Virus record (IMG/VR): IMGVR_UViG_3300018080_000131
Coordinates: 1-64,000 of that record
Length of the DNA stretch: 64,000 nucleotides
Reading direction: 5' to 3' (one strand)
DNA from: a virus
Under the pieces are notes generated by a model. The model was not told the DNA's origin, did no database searches, and saw nothing but the letters and a program-made list of their open reading frames with translations. A program made the position numbers and the translations under genes. Position 1 is the stretch's first letter. The number at the start of each line of letters is the position of its first letter. This document shows, piece after piece, positions 535 through 28,683 of this stretch.

Positions 535-1641
535 ATGACTAATGCTTCTTTTTTATATAATAATCTTTGGGATGGTTCAGGAACTTTAACTTATTCATCC
601 AAGCATAGTAACTTTCCAGCAACACAAACAAGAAATAGGTGGTTTACTAAAAGTTGGAGAAGTAGATATGGTTCTGGTTCTGGTTGGGGTAGGTTTGTTA
701 TATCTACTGGTGTAAATGATGCTATTGATTTTGATGAAGGTGGTGCAGAAATAAATGCTACTCTTACAGCAGGAACATATACAGCAGATACTTTATGTAC
801 TGAGATTAAAACTCAATTAGATGCTGGTGGTGCTTTAACATATACAGTTGATTATGATGATGCTAATAATAAATTTGTTATTTCTGCTACTGGTAATTTT
901 ACTTTAAGATGGAATACAGGAACTAATAAAACTACAAGTGTTGCTAGTACTATTGGTTATAGTGATTCTGCTGATGATAATGGTGGAGCAGATTCTTTTA
1001 CAGCAGATAATATGAGGATTCATAGTGAAGAATGGTTGAAATTTGATTTTGGTTCAGCTAAAAGTATTACCAGTTTTGCTATAAGGTATCATAATCTTTC
1101 AAGTTCAGCTACTTTAAAACTACAAGGTCATACTGCTGATTCTTGGAGTTCACCAGATGTTGATGAAACTATTTCTATTACTGATGATGTTATTTTTAAG
1201 TTTTTATCATCTGCTCAGAGTAAAAGATGGTGGAGAATTTATATAAATGATGTTGATAATTCAGATGGGTATGTTGAATTAGGTAGGGTGTTTCTTGGTA
1301 CTTATTTTGCTCCTACTGTTAATTGCAGAAGAGATTATAGTGTTGATTGGGTAGACCCATCTACAATTATGTTTTCTGATGGTGGTCAATTGTCTTCAAA
1401 TAAAAAAACAAAATATGGTTATGAAAGTTATGTTTTTGAATATATTACTGATACAGATTTAGCTAATTTTAAAACTATGTGGGATTCTATTGGAATGACA
1501 GAGGATATATTTTTTGTGAGAGATAGGGATAATGCTTCTACAACAGGAATGTATTGTAGGGTTGCTACTCCTATTAGGTATAAACATTTTGTGAGAGAAT
1601 CTTTTTATACTCTTAATATTGATTTAGAGGAACTTAGGTAA
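535..1641 (+). CDS. tail protein (distal-tail-like, with a discoidin/F5-8-like insertion)
   Basis: 368 aa, beta-rich T/S/D/G composition. EEWLKFDFG...ITSFAI...RWWRIYI...ELG resembles a discoidin fold. Position after the tape measure gene. Confidence 0.6.
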   Translation: MTNASFLYNNLWDGSGTLTYSSKHSNFPATQTRNRWFTKSWRSRYGSGSGWGRFVISTGVNDAIDFDEGGAEINATLTAGTYTADTLCTEIKTQLDAGGALTYTVDYDDANNKFVISATGNFTLRWNTGTNKTTSVASTIGYSDSADDNGGADSFTADNMRIHSEEWLKFDFGSAKSITSFAIRYHNLSSSATLKLQGHTADSWSSPDVDETISITDDVIFKFLSSAQSKRWWRIYINDVDNSDGYVELGRVFLGTYFAPTVNCRRDYSVDWVDPSTIMFSDGGQLSSNKKTKYGYESYVFEYITDTDLANFKTMWDSIGMTEDIFFVRDRDNASTTGMYCRVATPIRYKHFVRESFYTLNIDLEELR

Positions 1642-1722: not shown

Positions 1723-4707
1723 ATGCAGTTTGCTGATTTTATAAAACTAACAGATAGTTTCAAGTTGTTTCTTGTTGAAATTAATGTTGGTGATGAGATA
1801 GAAGATGCTACTTGGGTACAAGATGTAACTTATACTAATTGTTGGTATACTGAAAATTATGATGTTGGTGTTCCTAATAAAGTAACTGAAGATGGAAGTG
1901 AATATACTGAAAGATTTACTCTTACAGAATTAAATAGTAATGCAAGTGGGTTTTATTATGATTTTGAAAATCAGAAATTATATCTTCATACTTCAGGAAG
2001 TGATGACCCAGGAAGCCAAACTGGTGATGATTATGATTATAAGATTGTTGCTTTTTCTTATAGGTATATTTGTAATAGTCAATTTGGAGATGGTAATGAA
2101 GTTGTATTTGCAAGAGAACAAGAGGCTTTAACAGATGGTAGTTTTGAACTTTGGGATTCTTCTACTGATTTAACTAATTATACAGAAACTACTGCTGGAA
2201 CTTCTACAGTAAATAGAGACAGTAGTGTTGTTTATGCTGGTGGATATTCTGTAAGAATAGATATAGATGGAAGTGGAAACAATGCTAGTATTTTACAAAA
2301 TATTATTTTAAAACCAAGTGGTAAGTGCAAAATAACTTTTAGATACAGGCATGATGGTGCTGGAATTACTTCAGTTTTAAGAATAAAAGATTCAGCTAGT
2401 AATGTTTATCTTGATTCTAGTGGGGATTGGCAAGCTGGAGCTACTAATATATCTTTAGCTAATTCTAATGCTGAATGGACAGAATATGAACTTGAATTTT
2501 ATGCTCATGATGATTATACTAATTACACTATAGAGTTTGAGGGGACAGATGCTAATTCTTCTAATTGGTTTGATGATGCTTCTTTGACAATATATAGAGA
2601 AGATAATTATTATATTCCTTTTCTTTATTCTGGTTCTCTTCCTTCTATTCAACAGGCTGTTGATGATTATTATAATAGTTCTGTAAGAATGGAATTTGGA
2701 ACTATTAGATTTATAAATGATGGTTGGTGGTATTCTCAGATTCAGAATTATTTATGGTATAAGAAAGATATTACTATTAGGTATGGAGCTAAGGGTTCTG
2801 ACTATGAGGATTTTGAAACTATCTTTACAGGTAAAACTAGAAAACCTATGGTTGGTGATGAGTTTGCTTCAATAGATGTTACTGATGTTAAGGCTTTAAT
2901 CTATAAAGAAATACCTGCTACTAAATATTGGATAAGCAATTATGCTAATTTAGAAGCTGGTGCAGAAGGGTTGCCTATTCCTATTGCTTATGGTGAAATA
3001 TATGGAATTATTCCAATTTGTATAGATACTACAGCATATGAATATAAGATTGCTAATCATGAAATAGAAGATATTTTAGATGTTTATAAAGATGGTACTG
3101 CTCTTACTGGTGGTGGTGTTGATTATACAGTTGATTTGGCTAATGGTGAGTTTACTCTTTCTTCTGACCCAGGAGATTCATTAATAACTTGTGATATTCA
3201 AGGGAAGAAGTGTGATATAGAAGATGGAACTTATTCAGATAATGTTGCTGATATTCTTTATGATATTCTTGTTAATTATTCAGATATTGATGCTAGTCAA
3301 ATAGACCTTGAATCATTTCTTGATTTAAAAGGTGGAAGAACTCAATCCCATCAATTGTATATTAATGTTGGAAGGTCTTGTGTTGAGTATGTTAGGCTTC
3401 TTCAGCAATCATCTCTATTTCATGTTATTCCTTTGACTAATGGAAAAATAGGAGCTTTTAGGTATGTAACAGGAACAAGTTCTTCTACTCCTAGATTTGT
3501 TGATGAAGACTATAATGAGTTTTCTATTATTTATGATACTTCCAATATTCATAATAAAATAAAGGTTAGATATAATCATAATCCTGGTGATGAGTCTTAT
3601 GCAAAAACAGTGAGAACTGATAGTGATGTTGAATATAAGTATGATGAAGTTAACACAAAGACTATTACAACAACATTGAAAGATGAGGCTGATGCTGAAA
3701 ATTTAGGTGATTTTTATCTTGATTTATTGAATGAACCACAAAGGAAGGTTAGTGTGGTTCTTCCAACAAGGATATTTAATTTAAGACCTGCTGAAAAAAT
3801 TATATTCAATAAAACAAGATATATGAAGGAAGGAACTGTTACTGTTTTTGATGAAGAACCTTATAGGATATTAGAATTAAATAAAAGTTTGGCTGATGGT
3901 AAGGTTAAGGTTATTGCTATTGAAGACCTTCAATCTGCTGGTGAAGGGTTTTGTGAGGTATGTTATACCTGTCAATCCTGTAATGTGGAGCAAGATGGCT
4001 CATGTTCTTCATGTTATACCTGTGAAAAGTGTGATGCTGGTGAGTGTGATTCTTGTCAATCTTGTTATTATTGTCAAAAGTGTGATGCTGGTGAGTGTTC
4101 AAGTTGTGAGGTTTGTGATAGTTGTGAGGAGTGTGAATCTGGTCAGTGTGGGACTTGTGAAACTTGTGATTCTTGTCAAACCTGTAATACATGCCAGGAT
4201 TGTGATTCTGGGGAATGTGCTACATGCCAAACTTGTGATAGTTGTGAGGAATGTGATAGTTGTCAATTAGGATGTTATACTGGTCAGTGTACTTCTTGTG
4301 AATCTTGTGATTCTTGTGAAGGGTGTAATACATGCCAAAATTGTGATAGTTGCCAAAAATGTTATTCTGGAGAGTGTTCCAGTTGTGAATCTTGTGATTC
4401 TTGTCAAACCTGTAATACATGCCAAAATTGTGATACAGGTGAGTGTTCCAGTTGTCAAAGTTGTGATACATGCCAGGATTGTTATTCTAATGAATGTACT
4501 TTATGTGAATCTTGTGATTCTTGTCAAACCTGTAATACATGCCAAAATTGTGATACAGGAGAATGTTCTAGTTGTCAGGCTTGTAATACCTGTCAAACCT
4601 GTGATAGTTGTGAAAAGTGTAATACTGGTCAATGTACTTCTTGTCAAACCTGTAATACATGCCAAAATTGTTATACCTGTGAGGTATGTGATATTGTCCA
4701 AGGATAA
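1723..4707 (+). CDS. large tail-tip/baseplate hub-like protein with a carbohydrate-binding-like insert and a C-terminal Cys-rich (Cxx)n domain
   Basis: 994 aa. DGSFELW...VYAGGYSVRI CBM-like segment; PIPIAYG typical of tail hub proteins; residues ~744-994 hold ~74 Cys (hand count) in CxxCxxC arrays. Confidence 0.7.
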   Translation: MQFADFIKLTDSFKLFLVEINVGDEIEDATWVQDVTYTNCWYTENYDVGVPNKVTEDGSEYTERFTLTELNSNASGFYYDFENQKLYLHTSGSDDPGSQTGDDYDYKIVAFSYRYICNSQFGDGNEVVFAREQEALTDGSFELWDSSTDLTNYTETTAGTSTVNRDSSVVYAGGYSVRIDIDGSGNNASILQNIILKPSGKCKITFRYRHDGAGITSVLRIKDSASNVYLDSSGDWQAGATNISLANSNAEWTEYELEFYAHDDYTNYTIEFEGTDANSSNWFDDASLTIYREDNYYIPFLYSGSLPSIQQAVDDYYNSSVRMEFGTIRFINDGWWYSQIQNYLWYKKDITIRYGAKGSDYEDFETIFTGKTRKPMVGDEFASIDVTDVKALIYKEIPATKYWISNYANLEAGAEGLPIPIAYGEIYGIIPICIDTTAYEYKIANHEIEDILDVYKDGTALTGGGVDYTVDLANGEFTLSSDPGDSLITCDIQGKKCDIEDGTYSDNVADILYDILVNYSDIDASQIDLESFLDLKGGRTQSHQLYINVGRSCVEYVRLLQQSSLFHVIPLTNGKIGAFRYVTGTSSSTPRFVDEDYNEFSIIYDTSNIHNKIKVRYNHNPGDESYAKTVRTDSDVEYKYDEVNTKTITTTLKDEADAENLGDFYLDLLNEPQRKVSVVLPTRIFNLRPAEKIIFNKTRYMKEGTVTVFDEEPYRILELNKSLADGKVKVIAIEDLQSAGEGFCEVCYTCQSCNVEQDGSCSSCYTCEKCDAGECDSCQSCYYCQKCDAGECSSCEVCDSCEECESGQCGTCETCDSCQTCNTCQDCDSGECATCQTCDSCEECDSCQLGCYTGQCTSCESCDSCEGCNTCQNCDSCQKCYSGECSSCESCDSCQTCNTCQNCDTGECSSCQSCDTCQDCYSNECTLCESCDSCQTCNTCQNCDTGECSSCQACNTCQTCDSCEKCNTGQCTSCQTCNTCQNCYTCEVCDIVQG

Positions 4708-5523
4708 AAGAGGTAAATAATGGGTTGTGCTGTTTGTGAGTCATGTAATACTTGTGAAGTATGTGATTCTGTAGTTTGTGGAAGCTGTCAAGCTTGTAAT
4801 GCTTGTCAGGCTTGCTATACAGGGGAGTGTTCTACATGCCAGGATTGTGATAGCTGTCAAACAGCTTGTTATACTGGTCAATGTGCTAGTTGTCAGAATT
4901 GTTATACTTGTGAATCTTGTGATTCTGGTCAATGTGCTGTTTGTCAATCCTGTGATTCTTGTGAATCATGTAATACCTGTCAAACTTGTGATTCTTGTGA
5001 GGCTTGCTATACAGGTGAGTGTTCTACTTGTGAAACTTGTTATACTTGTGAAAAATGTGATGCTTGTCAAGTATGTGAAGCTGGTCAGTGTGCATCTTGT
5101 CAAACTTGTGTAGCTTGTGAAACCTGTGATAGTTGTGAAGGGTGTAATGTGTGTCAATCCTGTAATGCTTGTGAAGCTTGTTATACTGGTCAGTGTCCAA
5201 GTTGTCAATCCTGTGTAAGTTGTCAAACCTGTGATAGTTGTGAAACATCTTGTTATACTGGTCAGTGTTCATCCTGTCAGGTATGTGATAGTTGTCAGGA
5301 TTGTGTGGTAAAACAATGTGCTAGTTGTCAATCCTGTGATGCTTGTGAGTCATGTAATACATGCCAAAATTGTGATTCTTGTGAAGCTTGTTATACTGGT
5401 CAGTGTGCTACATGCCAGGATTGTAATGCTTGTCAAACCTGTGATAGCTGTCAAACAGCTTGTTATACTGGTCAGTGTGTTAATTGTCAAGTATGTGATG
5501 ATTGTCAGGAATGTGATACCTGT
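3952..5523 (+). repeat. coding tandem repeats TGT-N6 (Cys every third codon) spanning two genes
   Basis: 9-nt periodicity. The longer block TGTGATTCTTGTCAAACCTGTAATACATGCCA recurs near 4165, 4393 and 4513. Confidence 0.95.
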
Positions 5524-5550
5524 CAAAATTCTTATATAATAGAACCATAA
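4720..5550 (+). CDS. Cys-rich repeat protein, putative radical SAM substrate
   Basis: 276 aa with ~81 Cys (hand count). CxxCxxC runs joined by CYTGQC/CDSGQC linkers; SD GAGG upstream. Confidence 0.85.
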   Translation: MGCAVCESCNTCEVCDSVVCGSCQACNACQACYTGECSTCQDCDSCQTACYTGQCASCQNCYTCESCDSGQCAVCQSCDSCESCNTCQTCDSCEACYTGECSTCETCYTCEKCDACQVCEAGQCASCQTCVACETCDSCEGCNVCQSCNACEACYTGQCPSCQSCVSCQTCDSCETSCYTGQCSSCQVCDSCQDCVVKQCASCQSCDACESCNTCQNCDSCEACYTGQCATCQDCNACQTCDSCQTACYTGQCVNCQVCDDCQECDTCQNSYIIEP

Positions 5551-5566
5551 TAGGAGAAAATATAAA

Positions 5567-7066
5567 ATGAAAGAATGTGAAACTTGTGAAAGTTGTTATA
5601 CTTGTGAAAAAAGTGTTATTTCAAGTATAACAAAAGAACAATTAGATGAAGCAAAAAAGAAAGGTGGTATTCCTTCTGAATGGTTGAGAGATTTAGATTG
5701 TGAAAACTGTTTTTCTTGTCAGAAGTGTGATACAAGTCAAGAAGTTGACAAATGTGGAAACTGCTATGCTTGTCAGAAGTGTGATACTCACCAAGGAAAT
5801 GCTGGTGATGGGTTAAATAATTGTGAAAATTGTTTCTCTTGTCAGAAGTGTGTTTCTCAGCAAGCTAATTGTGAAAATTGCTATACCTGTCAGGTTGGTG
5901 ATGTTTCTAATGATTCTTGTAAAGGTGGTGTTTGTAAGGTAAAGAAGGATGAGGATTATGTTAATAATATAACCTATTTCTTATTTCCAACAAATAATTG
6001 TAACTTGAGATGTACTTATTGTTATGCTACAAAAACTCCTAAAGAAATGGATGCTGAAACCTTAGCTCAGGCTGGAGAATTTATACTTGGTCCAGAGGAA
6101 GAGAGGAATCCTGGGAGAAGGGTTAATATTCAGTTTTTTGGTGGAGAACCTATGTTGAAATGGAATATGCTAACTACATTTATTGATTGGATGAATGAGG
6201 AAGCAAGAAAAAGATTAGGAAGAAAGATTAATTGGGGTATGACCACAAATGGTACTCTTTTAAATGAAGAAAGAATTAAGTGGATGAAGGAGCATAATTT
6301 AAGACCTTTATTGAGTGTTGATGGTAGAAAGGAAACTCATAATAAGCATAGGATTTATGCTAATGGAAGAGGTTCTTTTGATGATATTCCTTTTGATACT
6401 TTTTTGAAATATTTTCCTAATCCAGAATTAAGACCAACAATTCTTCCTGATACTGTAGAAGGTTGGATTGAAGATTTGTATTGGTTTCATTCTAAGGGAT
6501 GTTATAATGTTGCTACAGAGGTTGCTTATGAGGCTGATTGGGATGATGAGGCTATGGCTAAGGCTTGGAGAACTTATGATAAGATGGGAGATATTTATAT
6601 TCAATTTAGGAAAGCTGGGAAGAAAGATTTTTGGATGAAGTTTATAATGGATGGTTTGAATACTTTAGGTATAGAAAGACAAACAGGAACAGTATGTGGA
6701 ATTGCAAGAAATACTGTAGCCATTGATGCTCATGGTTGGCTTTATGCTTGTCAGAGATATGCTGATTTTAATAATCCTGATTTGAAGATTGGAGATATTT
6801 GGGAAGGTTGGGATTATGACAAGTTGAAGGAATGGAGAAGTTTGAGAAGAGAACATATGTATCCTGACCCAAGAAGTGGTTTTGATTGTGAAACTTGTCC
6901 TGCTAGATGGAAATGCAGAGGTGGTTGTAATGCTATGAATTATCAATGTAATAATGATAGAAAAATGATATTGGAAAATCATTGTAAGTTTCAGAGAATG
7001 TGGGCTTTAATAACATTAAGAGTGTTGTCAGCAACAGGAGAGTTACATAGGAAAATTAGAAGATAA
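5567..7066 (+). CDS. radical SAM/SPASM peptide/protein maturase with Cys-rich N-terminal extension
   Basis: CNLRCTYC rSAM motif, FFGGEP, TTNGTLL, SVDG. SPASM cysteines CGIARN...YACQ...IGDI...CETCPARWKCRGGC...HC. SD GGAG. Confidence 0.95.
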   Translation: MKECETCESCYTCEKSVISSITKEQLDEAKKKGGIPSEWLRDLDCENCFSCQKCDTSQEVDKCGNCYACQKCDTHQGNAGDGLNNCENCFSCQKCVSQQANCENCYTCQVGDVSNDSCKGGVCKVKKDEDYVNNITYFLFPTNNCNLRCTYCYATKTPKEMDAETLAQAGEFILGPEEERNPGRRVNIQFFGGEPMLKWNMLTTFIDWMNEEARKRLGRKINWGMTTNGTLLNEERIKWMKEHNLRPLLSVDGRKETHNKHRIYANGRGSFDDIPFDTFLKYFPNPELRPTILPDTVEGWIEDLYWFHSKGCYNVATEVAYEADWDDEAMAKAWRTYDKMGDIYIQFRKAGKKDFWMKFIMDGLNTLGIERQTGTVCGIARNTVAIDAHGWLYACQRYADFNNPDLKIGDIWEGWDYDKLKEWRSLRREHMYPDPRSGFDCETCPARWKCRGGCNAMNYQCNNDRKMILENHCKFQRMWALITLRVLSATGELHRKIRR

Positions 7067-8463
7067 TGGATTTTATAACTAGTGAAGAGTATGAGAATAC
7101 TGTAAGAAATATTCTCAAAAGACTTGATGGAAAGATTGATAAATCAGGTGGTAGTATATCTGGTGATGTAGATATTACTGGAACATTAAGTATTAAATCT
7201 CAAAATGAATTAAGATTCTATGATAATGGAAATTATGTAGGGTTTGAAGCTCCTGCTTTATCTGGGAATCAGATTTGGGTTCTTCCTGATGCAGATGGAG
7301 GTGCTAATGAGGCTTTAGGCACAGATGGTGGTGGAAATCTGATATGGAGAAACCATGATGAACTTGCTGGGTATGTTGCTGATGAGCATATTGATTGGAC
7401 AAATGCTACTGATAATTTAAGCACAAGTGGAAATATATTTACAACTGGTGGTCATTACTATGCTCCAAATGATGCTAAAATTTATTTTAGAGATGTTGGT
7501 GATACTGGCTACATAAGAGCTTTAAATGTTAATACTAATGACCATACAACATTAAATGCTAGTTCTGGTAAAGATATAATTTTTATGGAGAATGTTAGTG
7601 CTAAGATGAGATTAGTTAGTGGGGATTTTGGAATAGGTACAAATACTCCTGCTACAGTTGCTTCTGCTTCTCTTGGTGGTACAGTTCTTCATGTTTTAGA
7701 TAGTAGTGCTGATGGTAGATTGGTTGCTTCAGGTGCTACAGGAGCTAATTTAAATCTTGTTGATACTGGTGGTGGCTCTAATGATAAATGGTTACAGCTA
7801 GATGTTGATGGTGGTATTGGAAAATTTGCTTCTGTTGCTGATGCTGGTACAAGTTTTGTATCTAATAATATTCTTGTTATGGATTTAGGAAATGGTAATG
7901 TTGGGATAGGTACAAATACTCCAGGTGATGAGCTTGAGGTTAATGGCAATATAATGGCTAATGGGATAGGGTTGGGGAAATCTCCTACTCAGTTAATTGA
8001 TATGCAAGCTGAGAGTGCTTTATGCCCTATTTATATGACAGCTATAACCTCAACTAGCCAATGGCAATCTCCTCAAATTTTAACAAGAAGAGCAAGAGGA
8101 ACTGTTGGCTCTATATCTGCTGTTGCAGATGGAGATTTACTTTATAGGAATGATATATATGCCTATGATGGAAGTGATTATGTCTTAGCTGGTCATATAA
8201 GATGCCAAATGCAAGATGACCCAACAGATGTAGGTAATATTACACCATGTTCTCTTGGTTTTGCTGTTCAAGACTCCTCGGGTAATTTAAGAATAGCTAC
8301 TCAATTTGGTGAGTATTTTTATCTTCAACATGGTGTTCTTGCTATGGCAGAAACTACAACTCCTTCTGCTATTGCAAGAGTTGGAAAATTGTATACAAAG
8401 AGTGATAATAAACTTTATTTCCAGGATGGTGGTGGTACTGAACATGAAATGGCTTATGCATAA
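7066..8463 (+). CDS. tail fibre / receptor-binding-like protein
   Basis: Repeated GNVGIGTNTP/GDFGIGTNTP motifs; WVLPDADG and KLYFQDGGGTE segments typical of fibre proteins. Start overlaps the rSAM stop (TAATG). Confidence 0.75.
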   Translation: MDFITSEEYENTVRNILKRLDGKIDKSGGSISGDVDITGTLSIKSQNELRFYDNGNYVGFEAPALSGNQIWVLPDADGGANEALGTDGGGNLIWRNHDELAGYVADEHIDWTNATDNLSTSGNIFTTGGHYYAPNDAKIYFRDVGDTGYIRALNVNTNDHTTLNASSGKDIIFMENVSAKMRLVSGDFGIGTNTPATVASASLGGTVLHVLDSSADGRLVASGATGANLNLVDTGGGSNDKWLQLDVDGGIGKFASVADAGTSFVSNNILVMDLGNGNVGIGTNTPGDELEVNGNIMANGIGLGKSPTQLIDMQAESALCPIYMTAITSTSQWQSPQILTRRARGTVGSISAVADGDLLYRNDIYAYDGSDYVLAGHIRCQMQDDPTDVGNITPCSLGFAVQDSSGNLRIATQFGEYFYLQHGVLAMAETTTPSAIARVGKLYTKSDNKLYFQDGGGTEHEMAYA

Positions 8464-27690: not shown

Positions 27691-28683
27691 ATGAATAAAT
27701 ATATAGGTATGTATTCTTTTGATGCTGAACAGCAATCAAGAAGAAAGAAAAATAAAAAGAAACAGTTTCCTAATTTAGCATTAATGAAATTATCAACATA
27801 TTTTAAAAATAAAGATTATAGAGTTGAGCTTTATAATGAAGAGAAAGATAAAAATGGTTATTATGATAAAGTTTTTGTAAGTGTTGTGTTTGATTGGTCA
27901 TTAAAAAAATTACCAAAAAATATTCCTAGTCATTGGGAAGTTGGTGGTTATGCTTATGATATTAATAAAAAATTACCTATTAATGCTGAACATTTAGTTC
28001 CAGATTATGATTTATTTGATTGTGATTCTTATTATGGTTTTACAACAAGAGGGTGTTTTAGAAATTGCTCATTTTGTTTTGTGCCAAAAGCAGAAGGAAA
28101 GTTTAGGAGATATGTTGAAGATATTAATGAATTTTGTCCATCTGATAAAGGATTTACAAAAATAACATTACTTGATAATAATATATTATATGATAAAGAA
28201 CATTTCATTAATATATCAAATCAGATTATAGATAAAAATTTGTTAGTTGATTTTAATCAAGGCTTGGACCATAGATTGGTATGTGATGATGATATATTAA
28301 ATATTTTAACCAAATTGAAACATAGAGAATATAGATTTTCATTTGATTTTATTGAATATAAAAATAATGTTATTAAAACTATTGAGTGTTTAAAAAAACA
28401 TGGATTAAAGAAAAATTTTTGGTATGTTTTAGTTGGGTATAATACAACAATAGAAGAGGATTTAGAAAGATTAAAAATTTTAAGAGATTATAAGCAGGTT
28501 GTTTATGTTCAAAGATATAATAAAAGTAAAGATAGATTGTTAATACCTTTAGCTCAATGGGCTAATCAACCTTGGATTTTTTATAGTTATACATGGAATG
28601 ATTTTATTACTCATCCAAGTAAAGAAAGATACAGAAAATTATATGAAGAAAATAATTTACCATTAAGTTTAGAATCTATATAA
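27691..28683 (+). CDS. radical SAM protein (phage-type, no SPASM)
   Basis: PNLALMKLS, PDYDL, TTRGCFRNCSFCFVPKAEG, LLDNN, DFNQGLD. Confidence 0.9.
   Translation: MNKYIGMYSFDAEQQSRRKKNKKKQFPNLALMKLSTYFKNKDYRVELYNEEKDKNGYYDKVFVSVVFDWSLKKLPKNIPSHWEVGGYAYDINKKLPINAEHLVPDYDLFDCDSYYGFTTRGCFRNCSFCFVPKAEGKFRRYVEDINEFCPSDKGFTKITLLDNNILYDKEHFINISNQIIDKNLLVDFNQGLDHRLVCDDDILNILTKLKHREYRFSFDFIEYKNNVIKTIECLKKHGLKKNFWYVLVGYNTTIEEDLERLKILRDYKQVVYVQRYNKSKDRLLIPLAQWANQPWIFYSYTWNDFITHPSKERYRKLYEENNLPLSLESI

Follow-up and report, generated by a model that had tools for sequence, protein, structure and literature searches.

The question raised by this locus is what sets the residues between the cysteines of a long phage repeat and what a neighboring radical S-adenosylmethionine (SAM) enzyme could make of them. 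The locus lies in IMG/VR virus record IMGVR_UViG_3300018080_000131, of which we analyzed positions 1 to 64,000 (the window, by which we mean this whole 64,000-nucleotide stretch); the window is part of a 101-kb phage record estimated to be 65% complete. A cysteine repeat spans positions 3952 to 5550 on the plus strand and places 155 cysteines in two proteins. It begins at residue 744 (nucleotide 3952) of a 994-residue open reading frame (ORF; 1723 to 4707) for a predicted tail-tip protein and runs to the end of that ORF. The resulting C-terminal extension of 251 residues and 74 cysteines (3952 to 4707) was delimited by grammar counts and by the period reported by Tandem Repeats Finder (TRF). 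The whole of the next plus-strand ORF (4720 to 5550), encoding a stand-alone protein of 276 residues and 81 cysteines that matches phrog_15341 (E 1.6e-7), is made of the same repeat grammar. The gene after it, on the same strand, encodes the radical SAM enzyme with its SPASM domain. We found that the residue four positions after each cysteine (i+4) is specified by that cysteine, in the window as in its relatives, and we discuss a candidate model in which the enzyme would tie the two residues together through a thioether.

Cysteines in the repeat recur mostly at every third residue, the spacing being 3 in 127 intervals, 5 in 21, 4 in 4, and 8 in 1. In the tail-tip extension, the blocks read (C-[EQ]-x-C-[DNY]-x)n and are linked by C-x-x-G-[EQ]. 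A preliminary description of this DNA had placed aspartate, glutamate, asparagine, or glutamine (D/E/N/Q) at i+4 of nearly every cysteine. The motifs that it quoted are all present (CESCD, CDSCE, CQTCD, CDSGE, and CYTGQ, with the block starts CSS, CAT, CGT, CAV, and CPS), and the count agrees with it: D/E/N/Q occupies i+4 of 134/155 cysteines (86%), or 147/155 with tyrosine included, and 96 to 99% of cysteines have an i+4 residue in the class once tyrosine, valine, and methionine have joined D/E/N/Q. The same four residues are also frequent at other positions around cysteine (i+1, 74%; i-2, 64%; i+7, 71%). Because the period-three repeat makes the i+4 position of one cysteine the i+1 position of the next, only the block edges separate the two.

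We sorted each non-cysteine position by whether a cysteine stands at -1 and whether one stands at -4, and scored it both for D/E/N/Q and for the wider class E/Q/M/D/N/Y/V. Positions that are i+4 only held D/E/N/Q in 22/24 cases and the wider class in 24/24, compared to 1/26 and 6/26 for positions that are i+1 only. Where both relations hold, the counts were 112/127 and 127/127, while the background positions with neither gave 21/189 and 34/189. Every non-cysteine position at i+4 of a cysteine in the window (151/151) therefore belongs to the wider class. The D/E/N/Q difference between the i+4-only and i+1-only positions of the window gave a Fisher p of 9e-11, a value that assumes independent positions, which those of a repeat are not. 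This caveat is eased because the DNA repeats are old (62 to 88% matches) and because the same result was obtained in 21 homologous repeat regions with different linkers. Residue choice is set by the cysteine at -4, not by the cysteine at -1. The 1/26 count also bears out the earlier remark that the one post-cysteine position that is not i+4 of any cysteine usually lacks D/E/N/Q.

The 21 homologous regions, a set that leaves the window out, were drawn from IMG/VR loci and from an exhaustive HMMER search with the 276-residue protein, which returned 62 relatives, mostly the C termini of 850- to 1,100-residue (tail) proteins. Tabulation in homologs had been put forward in the preliminary description as a check, and the enrichment was kept. 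The wider class was found at 209/217 i+4-only positions and at 81/225 i+1-only positions; the counts were 857/887 where both relations hold and 375/1606 where neither does. With D/E/N/Q only, i+4-only positions gave 154/217 versus 53/225 for i+1-only positions. In the relatives' linkers of 5, 6, 7, and 8 residues, the position four after the last cysteine was in class in 100%, 95%, 100%, and 100% of cases, respectively, even though its distance to the next cysteine varies from 1 to 4, and the other linker positions were in class in 0 to 47%. That longer linkers keep the rule, as had been suggested, is thus borne out. In the next block, A, S, T, or G mostly comes after the first cysteine. A missing cysteine is therefore matched by a missing class residue four positions on, and no other observation argues as strongly that i and i+4 form a functional pair. 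Judged from the repeat and its relatives at the sequence level, the i+4 register is genuine and conserved, and it is linked to the cysteine upstream.

What is conserved at i+4 is not the acid or amide character. D/E alone accounts for 65/155 i+4 positions (42%), and in the close relative P0127 for only 7/120, with Q, N, M, and V in their stead. Two classes that alternate along the chain, E/Q/M and D/N/V/Y, are conserved instead. The alternation is strict and continues through the linkers: in the window, 19 cases alternate and 3 do not, and in the relatives there are 163 alternating pairs against 18 same-class pairs. A corresponding 18-bp (hexad) period in the DNA was reported by TRF. Of the initial proposal of overlapping CX3D/E ranthionine motifs, the spacing and the kind of enzyme stand, and the requirement for D/E does not. 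Likewise, the C-[EQ]-x-C-[DNY]-x pattern was read correctly, while the property behind it is the alternation of E/Q/M with D/N/V/Y rather than acid or amide. E, Q, and M share a gamma-methylene, and D, N, V, and Y share a beta C-H. These shared groups would fit an alternating attack at C-gamma and C-beta.

The composition of the blocks also bears on whether the cysteines serve as metal ligands. A cysteine lattice could bind Zn, Fe, or Fe-S and stiffen the tip, with the i+4 residues playing a structural part and the radical SAM enzyme a minor or different one. Runs of CxxC are well known as metal ligands, Zn or Fe is often present in tail spikes and PAAR tips, and the CxxCxxC motifs in the N-terminal region of the enzyme resemble cluster-binding motifs. 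CrpA, an archaeal repeat protein modified by another SPASM radical SAM enzyme, has been suspected of binding metal (PMC13692751). Nevertheless, we consider a metal lattice quite improbable. Block sizes run from 3 to 14 cysteines, both odd and even, without favoring multiples of 2 or 4, and the i+4 class includes valine, methionine, and tyrosine, which offer no common ligand chemistry. In addition, the cysteine module never occurs without the radical SAM gene among the tail-tip homologs described below.

The radical SAM core and a seven-cysteine SPASM domain are encoded at positions 5981 to 7066 on the plus strand, as assigned from the CX3CX2C motif and from NCBIfam and CteB matches. The CX3CX2C motif (C145/C149/C152) is invariant in 31 relatives, and so are all seven SPASM cysteines (377, 395, 441, 444, 450, 454, and 473), with the layout C377...G390-x4-C395, C441-x2-C444-x5-C450-x3-C454, and C473, the set expected for two auxiliary clusters. 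The SPASM model itself was not among the matches of the enzyme in a Pfam search. The best of 49 NCBIfam families was PapB (NF047865), at 213.4 bits (E 4.8e-63; cut-off, 340). The SCIFF maturase scored 146 bits (cut-off, 425), QhpD 140 (cut-off, 453), the CXXX-repeat maturase (TIGR04115) 114 (cut-off, 350), anSME (TIGR03942) 81 (cut-off, 349), and the CrpC type (TIGR04463) 62.6, over the radical SAM core only (cut-off, 525). The nearest solved structure is CteB, both by sequence (5WGG, E 2e-34) and by fold (5why_B, E 5e-25), and anSME was the second-best structural match. Six "catalytic proximity" positions have been defined for SPASM enzymes (PMC10288494), and we compared them with CteB and anSME by mapping through the printed alignments. 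The phage enzyme reads Y-F-T-S-Q-R and CteB reads F-F-T-S-H-Q, while the first four positions of anSME are F-Q-Q-S, its last two being unalignable. As far as family models and predicted fold can tell, the enzyme is nearest to the thioether-forming radical SAM/SPASM maturases, to PapB by model and to CteB by sequence and fold.

These comparisons also weigh on the possibility that the repeat undergoes a different radical reaction, for instance an anSME-like conversion of cysteine to formylglycine, epimerization, or C-C cross-linking. The structural match to anSME points that way, and sequence is a poor guide to the function of SPASM enzymes (PMC10288494). We nonetheless rate such a reaction as very unlikely, since the thioether families score 213, 146, and 140 bits against 81 for anSME, proximity positions 2 and 3 agree with CteB and not with anSME, and a paired cysteine/+4 grammar implies a reaction that involves two residues.

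The N-terminal region of the maturase (residues 1 to 138; positions 5567 to 5980, plus strand), delimited from the family alignment and an AlphaFold2 (AF2) model, lies where maturases of ribosomally synthesized and posttranslationally modified peptides (RiPPs) have a RiPP recognition element (RRE). In its place are five short cysteine blocks that follow the i+4 grammar. We found no PqqD/RRE match in Pfam for the enzyme, and the RRE region of CteB (its residues 1 to 100) was left unaligned. AF2 predicted a short strand-helix element at residues 10 to 40, with a pLDDT (predicted local distance difference test) score of 65 to 87, and disorder at residues 44 to 126 (pLDDT below 50); a divergent RRE may still be present. 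Among 31 family members, C86/C89/C92 is invariant and C7/C10/C13 nearly so, and across the family N termini the i+4-only positions were in class in 91/108 cases, against 788/2223 for background. The number of N-terminal cysteine blocks ranges from one to about seven per family member. Because its N terminus follows the repeat grammar, the enzyme carries its own presumed substrate motif. The blocks might serve as a substrate built into the enzyme, as a docking element, or as the site of an additional cluster.

We searched IMG/VR with the nonrepeat part of the tail-tip protein and examined the loci for linkage of the repeat to the enzyme. All homologs with a cysteine-rich C terminus, found at six distinct loci in addition to the window (L162, L163, L164, L170/171, L175, and L176), have a radical SAM gene within 1.5 kb downstream. 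Three distinct loci whose homologs have a cysteine-free C terminus (L165-167, L168, and L174) showed no radical SAM gene in the 2 to 8 kb available. Some of the cysteine-free homologs are closer to the window by sequence than the cysteine-bearing ones. Across these loci, the cysteine module and the radical SAM gene behave as one exchangeable cassette that is gained and lost together.

Linkage of this kind can also be set against another alternative, namely, a disulfide-bonded or unmodified low-complexity fiber beside an unrelated radical SAM gene. Disulfide-stabilized, cysteine-rich beta-helical proteins exist, and AF2 gives no model for the repeat that would speak either way. We give this explanation almost no credence, considering the perfect co-occurrence with the enzyme, the presence of the same repeat on the enzyme, the reducing cytoplasm in which assembly takes place, and the conserved +4 partner, which it would leave unexplained.

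A wider view of the linkage came from loci related through the enzyme. A single-sequence search gave none, and the family alignment was needed as the query. An ORF with a repeat of at least 20 cysteines lay within 4 kb on the same strand in 53 of 79 viral radical SAM loci (L003 to L081; not dereplicated), as opposed to 1 of 80 bacterial or archaeal loci (L082 to L161) with similarly related enzymes. Most of the viral repeats near radical SAM genes have a cysteine at every fourth residue. An analogous i+5 rule in these period-4 relatives was considered and rejected, as they follow an i+1 rule: in period-4 repeats with E/Q, the residue was found at 92/112 i+1 positions and at only 22/79 i+5-only positions. 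The i+4 register is therefore specific to the period-3 family. Huge period-4 repeats occur at L029:1492-3435, L019:5167-8982, L061:6759-8222, L055:1448-3664, and L063:10210-11316, beside enzymes that are 24 to 30% identical. They include 129 copies of C-E-x-x and (C-[ST]-G-x)n runs without any acid or amide, and phrog_6085 covers part of them. Phage Phass-1 (OQ749652), a code-15 gut phage, has an unannotated small cysteine-rich ORF (L001:9417-9650) downstream of a 30%-identical radical SAM gene.

The position of the repeat on the virion is suggested by the protein that carries it. The body of the tail-tip or baseplate hub protein (residues 1 to 743; positions 1723 to 3951, plus strand) was assigned from AF2, Foldseek, phrog_8917, and a weak DUF642 match. 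Residues 1 to 737 were modeled by AF2 with a pLDDT of 70 to 94. A Foldseek search with this part returned the DT57C/T5 pb3 hub (8hqz_A, E 2.9e-17; 7zhj_b, E 6.9e-17) and lambda gpJ (8iyk_F, E 5.4e-13), with a Foldseek probability of 1.00 and TM-scores of 0.2 to 0.38, which are low because the protein is multidomain. The tips of T1 and Chi and the hubs of contractile systems were matched as well, while a sequence search of the PDB gave no match for the tail-tip protein. By its modeled fold, the carrier is a T5 pb3/lambda gpJ-like tail-tip protein, and since the hub fold precedes the repeat, the repeat would form a distal extension of the tail tip, at the site from which the central fiber of gpJ-type proteins extends. 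The likeness to T5 pb3 and lambda gpJ lies in the fold of residues 1 to 737 (Foldseek E 2.9e-17 to 1e-12) and in the position within the tail gene block, without detectable sequence similarity, and the matched hub structures have not been described with a cysteine-repeat C terminus or a dedicated maturase. A jelly-roll insert at about residues 150 to 290 (window positions of about 2170 to 2590) matches CBM16, CBM4, and CBM22, with a weak DUF642 match. This CBM-like insert may bind host glycans.

The two repeat ORFs lie in frame, with two TAA codons between them. We read them as separate genes because each has its own ribosome-binding site and ATG; the 276-residue protein is leaderless and begins directly with the repeat. 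A single gene read through the stop was rejected in view of the two TAA codons and the ribosome-binding site and ATG of each ORF, which are found in relatives too. A small repeat ORF in the tail-tip frame, with one or two stops between, was seen in 4/5 related loci. The junctions are at 4705-4722 in the window and at L003:7272-7284, L005:7985-7996, and L006:9355-9357. Neither repeat could be modeled usefully. The AF2 model of the repeat has a pLDDT of about 25, and the ESM Atlas model of the 276-residue protein is poor (pLDDT, 0.47), with no usable feature match.

Taking grammar, enzyme, and linkage together, we propose as substrates the C-terminal 251 residues of the tail-tip protein together with the 276-residue protein. 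The enzyme from the next gene would link each cysteine sulfur to a carbon in the side chain of the i+4 residue. If ranthionines are a guide, this acceptor carbon would be C-gamma for E, Q, and M and C-beta for D, N, V, and Y. Since cysteine recurs every three residues, the five-residue rings would overlap into a continuous covalent ladder of up to 155 rings over both proteins. Rings D and E of nisin illustrate that small thioether rings can overlap sterically. Projecting from the hub, the resulting central tail fiber would be rigid and insensitive to redox conditions and proteases. The proposed direction agrees with PapB and CrpC, for both of which the donor cysteine lies upstream of the acceptor. 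PapB forms cysteine-to-aspartate links in CXXXD, with the acceptor C-terminal to the cysteine (PMC12373016), and CrpC places ranthionines on CrpA, a 28.8-kDa repeat protein, where the cysteine precedes the acceptor in each modified motif (ACAGM, CAVD, PCAGD, and CPLVL) (PMC13692751). The sediment that is probably the source of the DNA also suits an oxygen-sensitive enzyme. We would give roughly even chances to the whole proposal, that is, one cysteine-to-(i+4) side-chain thioether per cysteine in both proteins, made by the adjacent enzyme and forming a ladder in the central fiber.

Several points weigh against this proposal. The ladder is inferred, its basis being the residue grammar of the repeat and the linkage of the genes. 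A carboxylate acceptor is needed by PapB (PMC12373016), yet the i+4 residues here are mostly amides, tyrosine, or valine. None of the NCBIfam thioether families is matched by the enzyme at its curated cut-off, PapB included (213 against 340 bits). The coupling between i and i+4 could instead be a direct structural contact, e.g., across a helical turn, with no covalent bond, and AF2 yields no structure of the repeat. The rule also has exceptions, as 35 four-residue gaps place the class residue at +5, and the distantly related period-4 phage systems with C-[EQ]-x-x obey i+1 and not i+5. Finally, full modification at one SAM per cysteine would consume 74 SAM for each hub chain and 81 for every copy of the 276-residue protein.

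Some of these points would be met by thioethers of another topology, in which only some cysteines are modified (such as those with D/E at +4), the links run between chains of a hub trimer, or sactionines are formed to C-alpha. Partial modification is in keeping with the 42% D/E at i+4 and the need of PapB for a carboxylate, with the partial and heterogeneous modification of CrpA (PMC13692751), and with the high SAM cost of full modification. Interchain links would be conceivable in that a trimeric hub is expected from the gpJ/pb3 fold match and from published tail-tip structures. An acid-only model, however, would leave P0127 almost unmodified although it keeps the grammar, and a one-to-one pairing of cysteine with +4 that is independent of the linker is most simply a pairing within one chain. 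We regard these topologies as unlikely, although less so than metal binding, another radical reaction, or disulfides.

In its most far-reaching form, the proposal would have phages of this lineage build their central tail fiber from a new protein material, with overlapping rings of alternating C-gamma and C-beta linkage over hundreds of residues made by an RRE-less, repeat-recognizing enzyme that bears, and perhaps modifies, copies of the repeat. This reading as a whole we offer tentatively, as possible but on the doubtful side.

Upstream of the module, positions 535 to 1641 (plus strand) encode a conserved tail protein of 368 residues (phrog_8610, E 8e-19), whose homologs immediately precede the tail-tip gene in L003, L005, and L019. 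Downstream, a Gly-rich fiber-like protein of 465 residues with no known family is encoded at 7066 to 8463 (plus strand), its start overlapping the stop of the maturase gene. We found no match for it in Pfam, PHROGs, NCBIfam, or the PDB. It is not an obligate part of the system, since its gene is missing from the related locus L003. Elsewhere, the window carries genes for DNA polymerase, helicases, ribonucleotide reductase, and terminase, and a second, unrelated radical SAM gene (phrog_9298) lies at 27691 to 28683 beside a ParB-like gene and a DNA polymerase gene. The phage is uncultured. Only one sequencing run contains the stretch, a DNA run from a sediment metagenome that is probably its source, and no RNA run was listed with it. 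A scan of genome contigs with the enzyme did not identify the host, as it gave only relatives of at most 30% identity.

Radical SAM thioether stapling has been known from small peptides and, since 2026, from one archaeal protein (PMC13692751). If our proposal holds, the same chemistry would operate on the host-contacting tip of a virus particle, with some 25-fold the ring density of freyrasin (155 rings versus 6) and on acceptors closed to PapB. With the grammar, the idea that the enzyme modifies the cysteine repeat becomes a prediction at the level of single residues. If true, the proposal would also provide a leader-independent enzyme for dense polycyclic peptides, account for a class of phage tail proteins that is widespread but lacks annotation (phrog_15341 and phrog_6085), and describe a new route to mechanical and proteolytic stability for virions of anaerobic habitats. 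For archaeal CrpA/CrpC, ranthionine cross-linking at the scale of a whole protein was described in September 2026, with phages unmentioned (PMC13692751). A literature search, with most subscription journals out of reach, found no paper on phage cysteine-repeat tail proteins with radical SAM enzymes.

Among characterized systems, PapB/PapA (freyrasin, Paenibacillus polymyxa) resembles the phage module in its radical SAM/SPASM enzyme, its repeated motifs, and a cysteine four residues upstream of the acceptor. PapA is a short, leader-bearing peptide with six nonoverlapping rings, for which the carboxylate is essential. The phage would instead use a predicted virion-type protein of 994 residues and a leaderless protein of 276 residues, neither of which is the short leader-plus-core precursor of a RiPP, and up to 155 overlapping rings are proposed. 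Its repeat shares the i+4 spacing of a PapB substrate and not the carboxylate (D/E at 42% here and 6% in P0127). Besides its score of 213 bits against the cut-off of 340, the phage enzyme differs from PapB in having no recognizable RRE and in bearing substrate-like repeats itself. CteB/CteA (SCIFF, thermocellin) provides the closest solved structure (5WGG/5WHY) and is alike in its three-cluster layout and proximity residues. CteB differs in having an N-terminal RRE and in forming just one link, in a peptide some 45 residues long.

The phage CXXX-repeat (period-4) systems are alike in having a radical SAM/SPASM gene that lies beside or follows the gene for a tail protein with a long cysteine repeat at its end, and one of them, L019, belongs to the same tail-tip family as the window. 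They differ in that cysteine stands at every fourth residue, E/Q, where present, follows its own cysteine, and the enzymes are only 24 to 30% identical to that of the window. With a spacing of 3 in 127/153 intervals, the repeat described here also falls outside the CXXX-repeat target system, of which NCBIfam TIGR04114/04115 represents the cellular form. The nearest precedent in scale is CrpC/CrpA (Methanococcus voltae, TIGR04463; Dieter et al. 2026, PMC13692751), which shares with the phage a SPASM radical SAM enzyme, a full-size cysteine-rich repeat protein with a low-confidence structure prediction, and a cysteine that precedes the acceptor. The CrpA motifs offer Met, Val, and Leu as nonacid candidates, the acceptor having been narrowed to within four residues for two motifs. 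CrpC/CrpA differs in being archaeal and cellular, with one cysteine per motif in a 17-residue repeat (C-X-X-Q/D, with the acceptor near i+3), an RRE, a leader-like N terminus, a nonvirion protein as substrate, and no overlapping rings, whereas the phage repeat would carry its rings in overlapping series on the tip of the virion.

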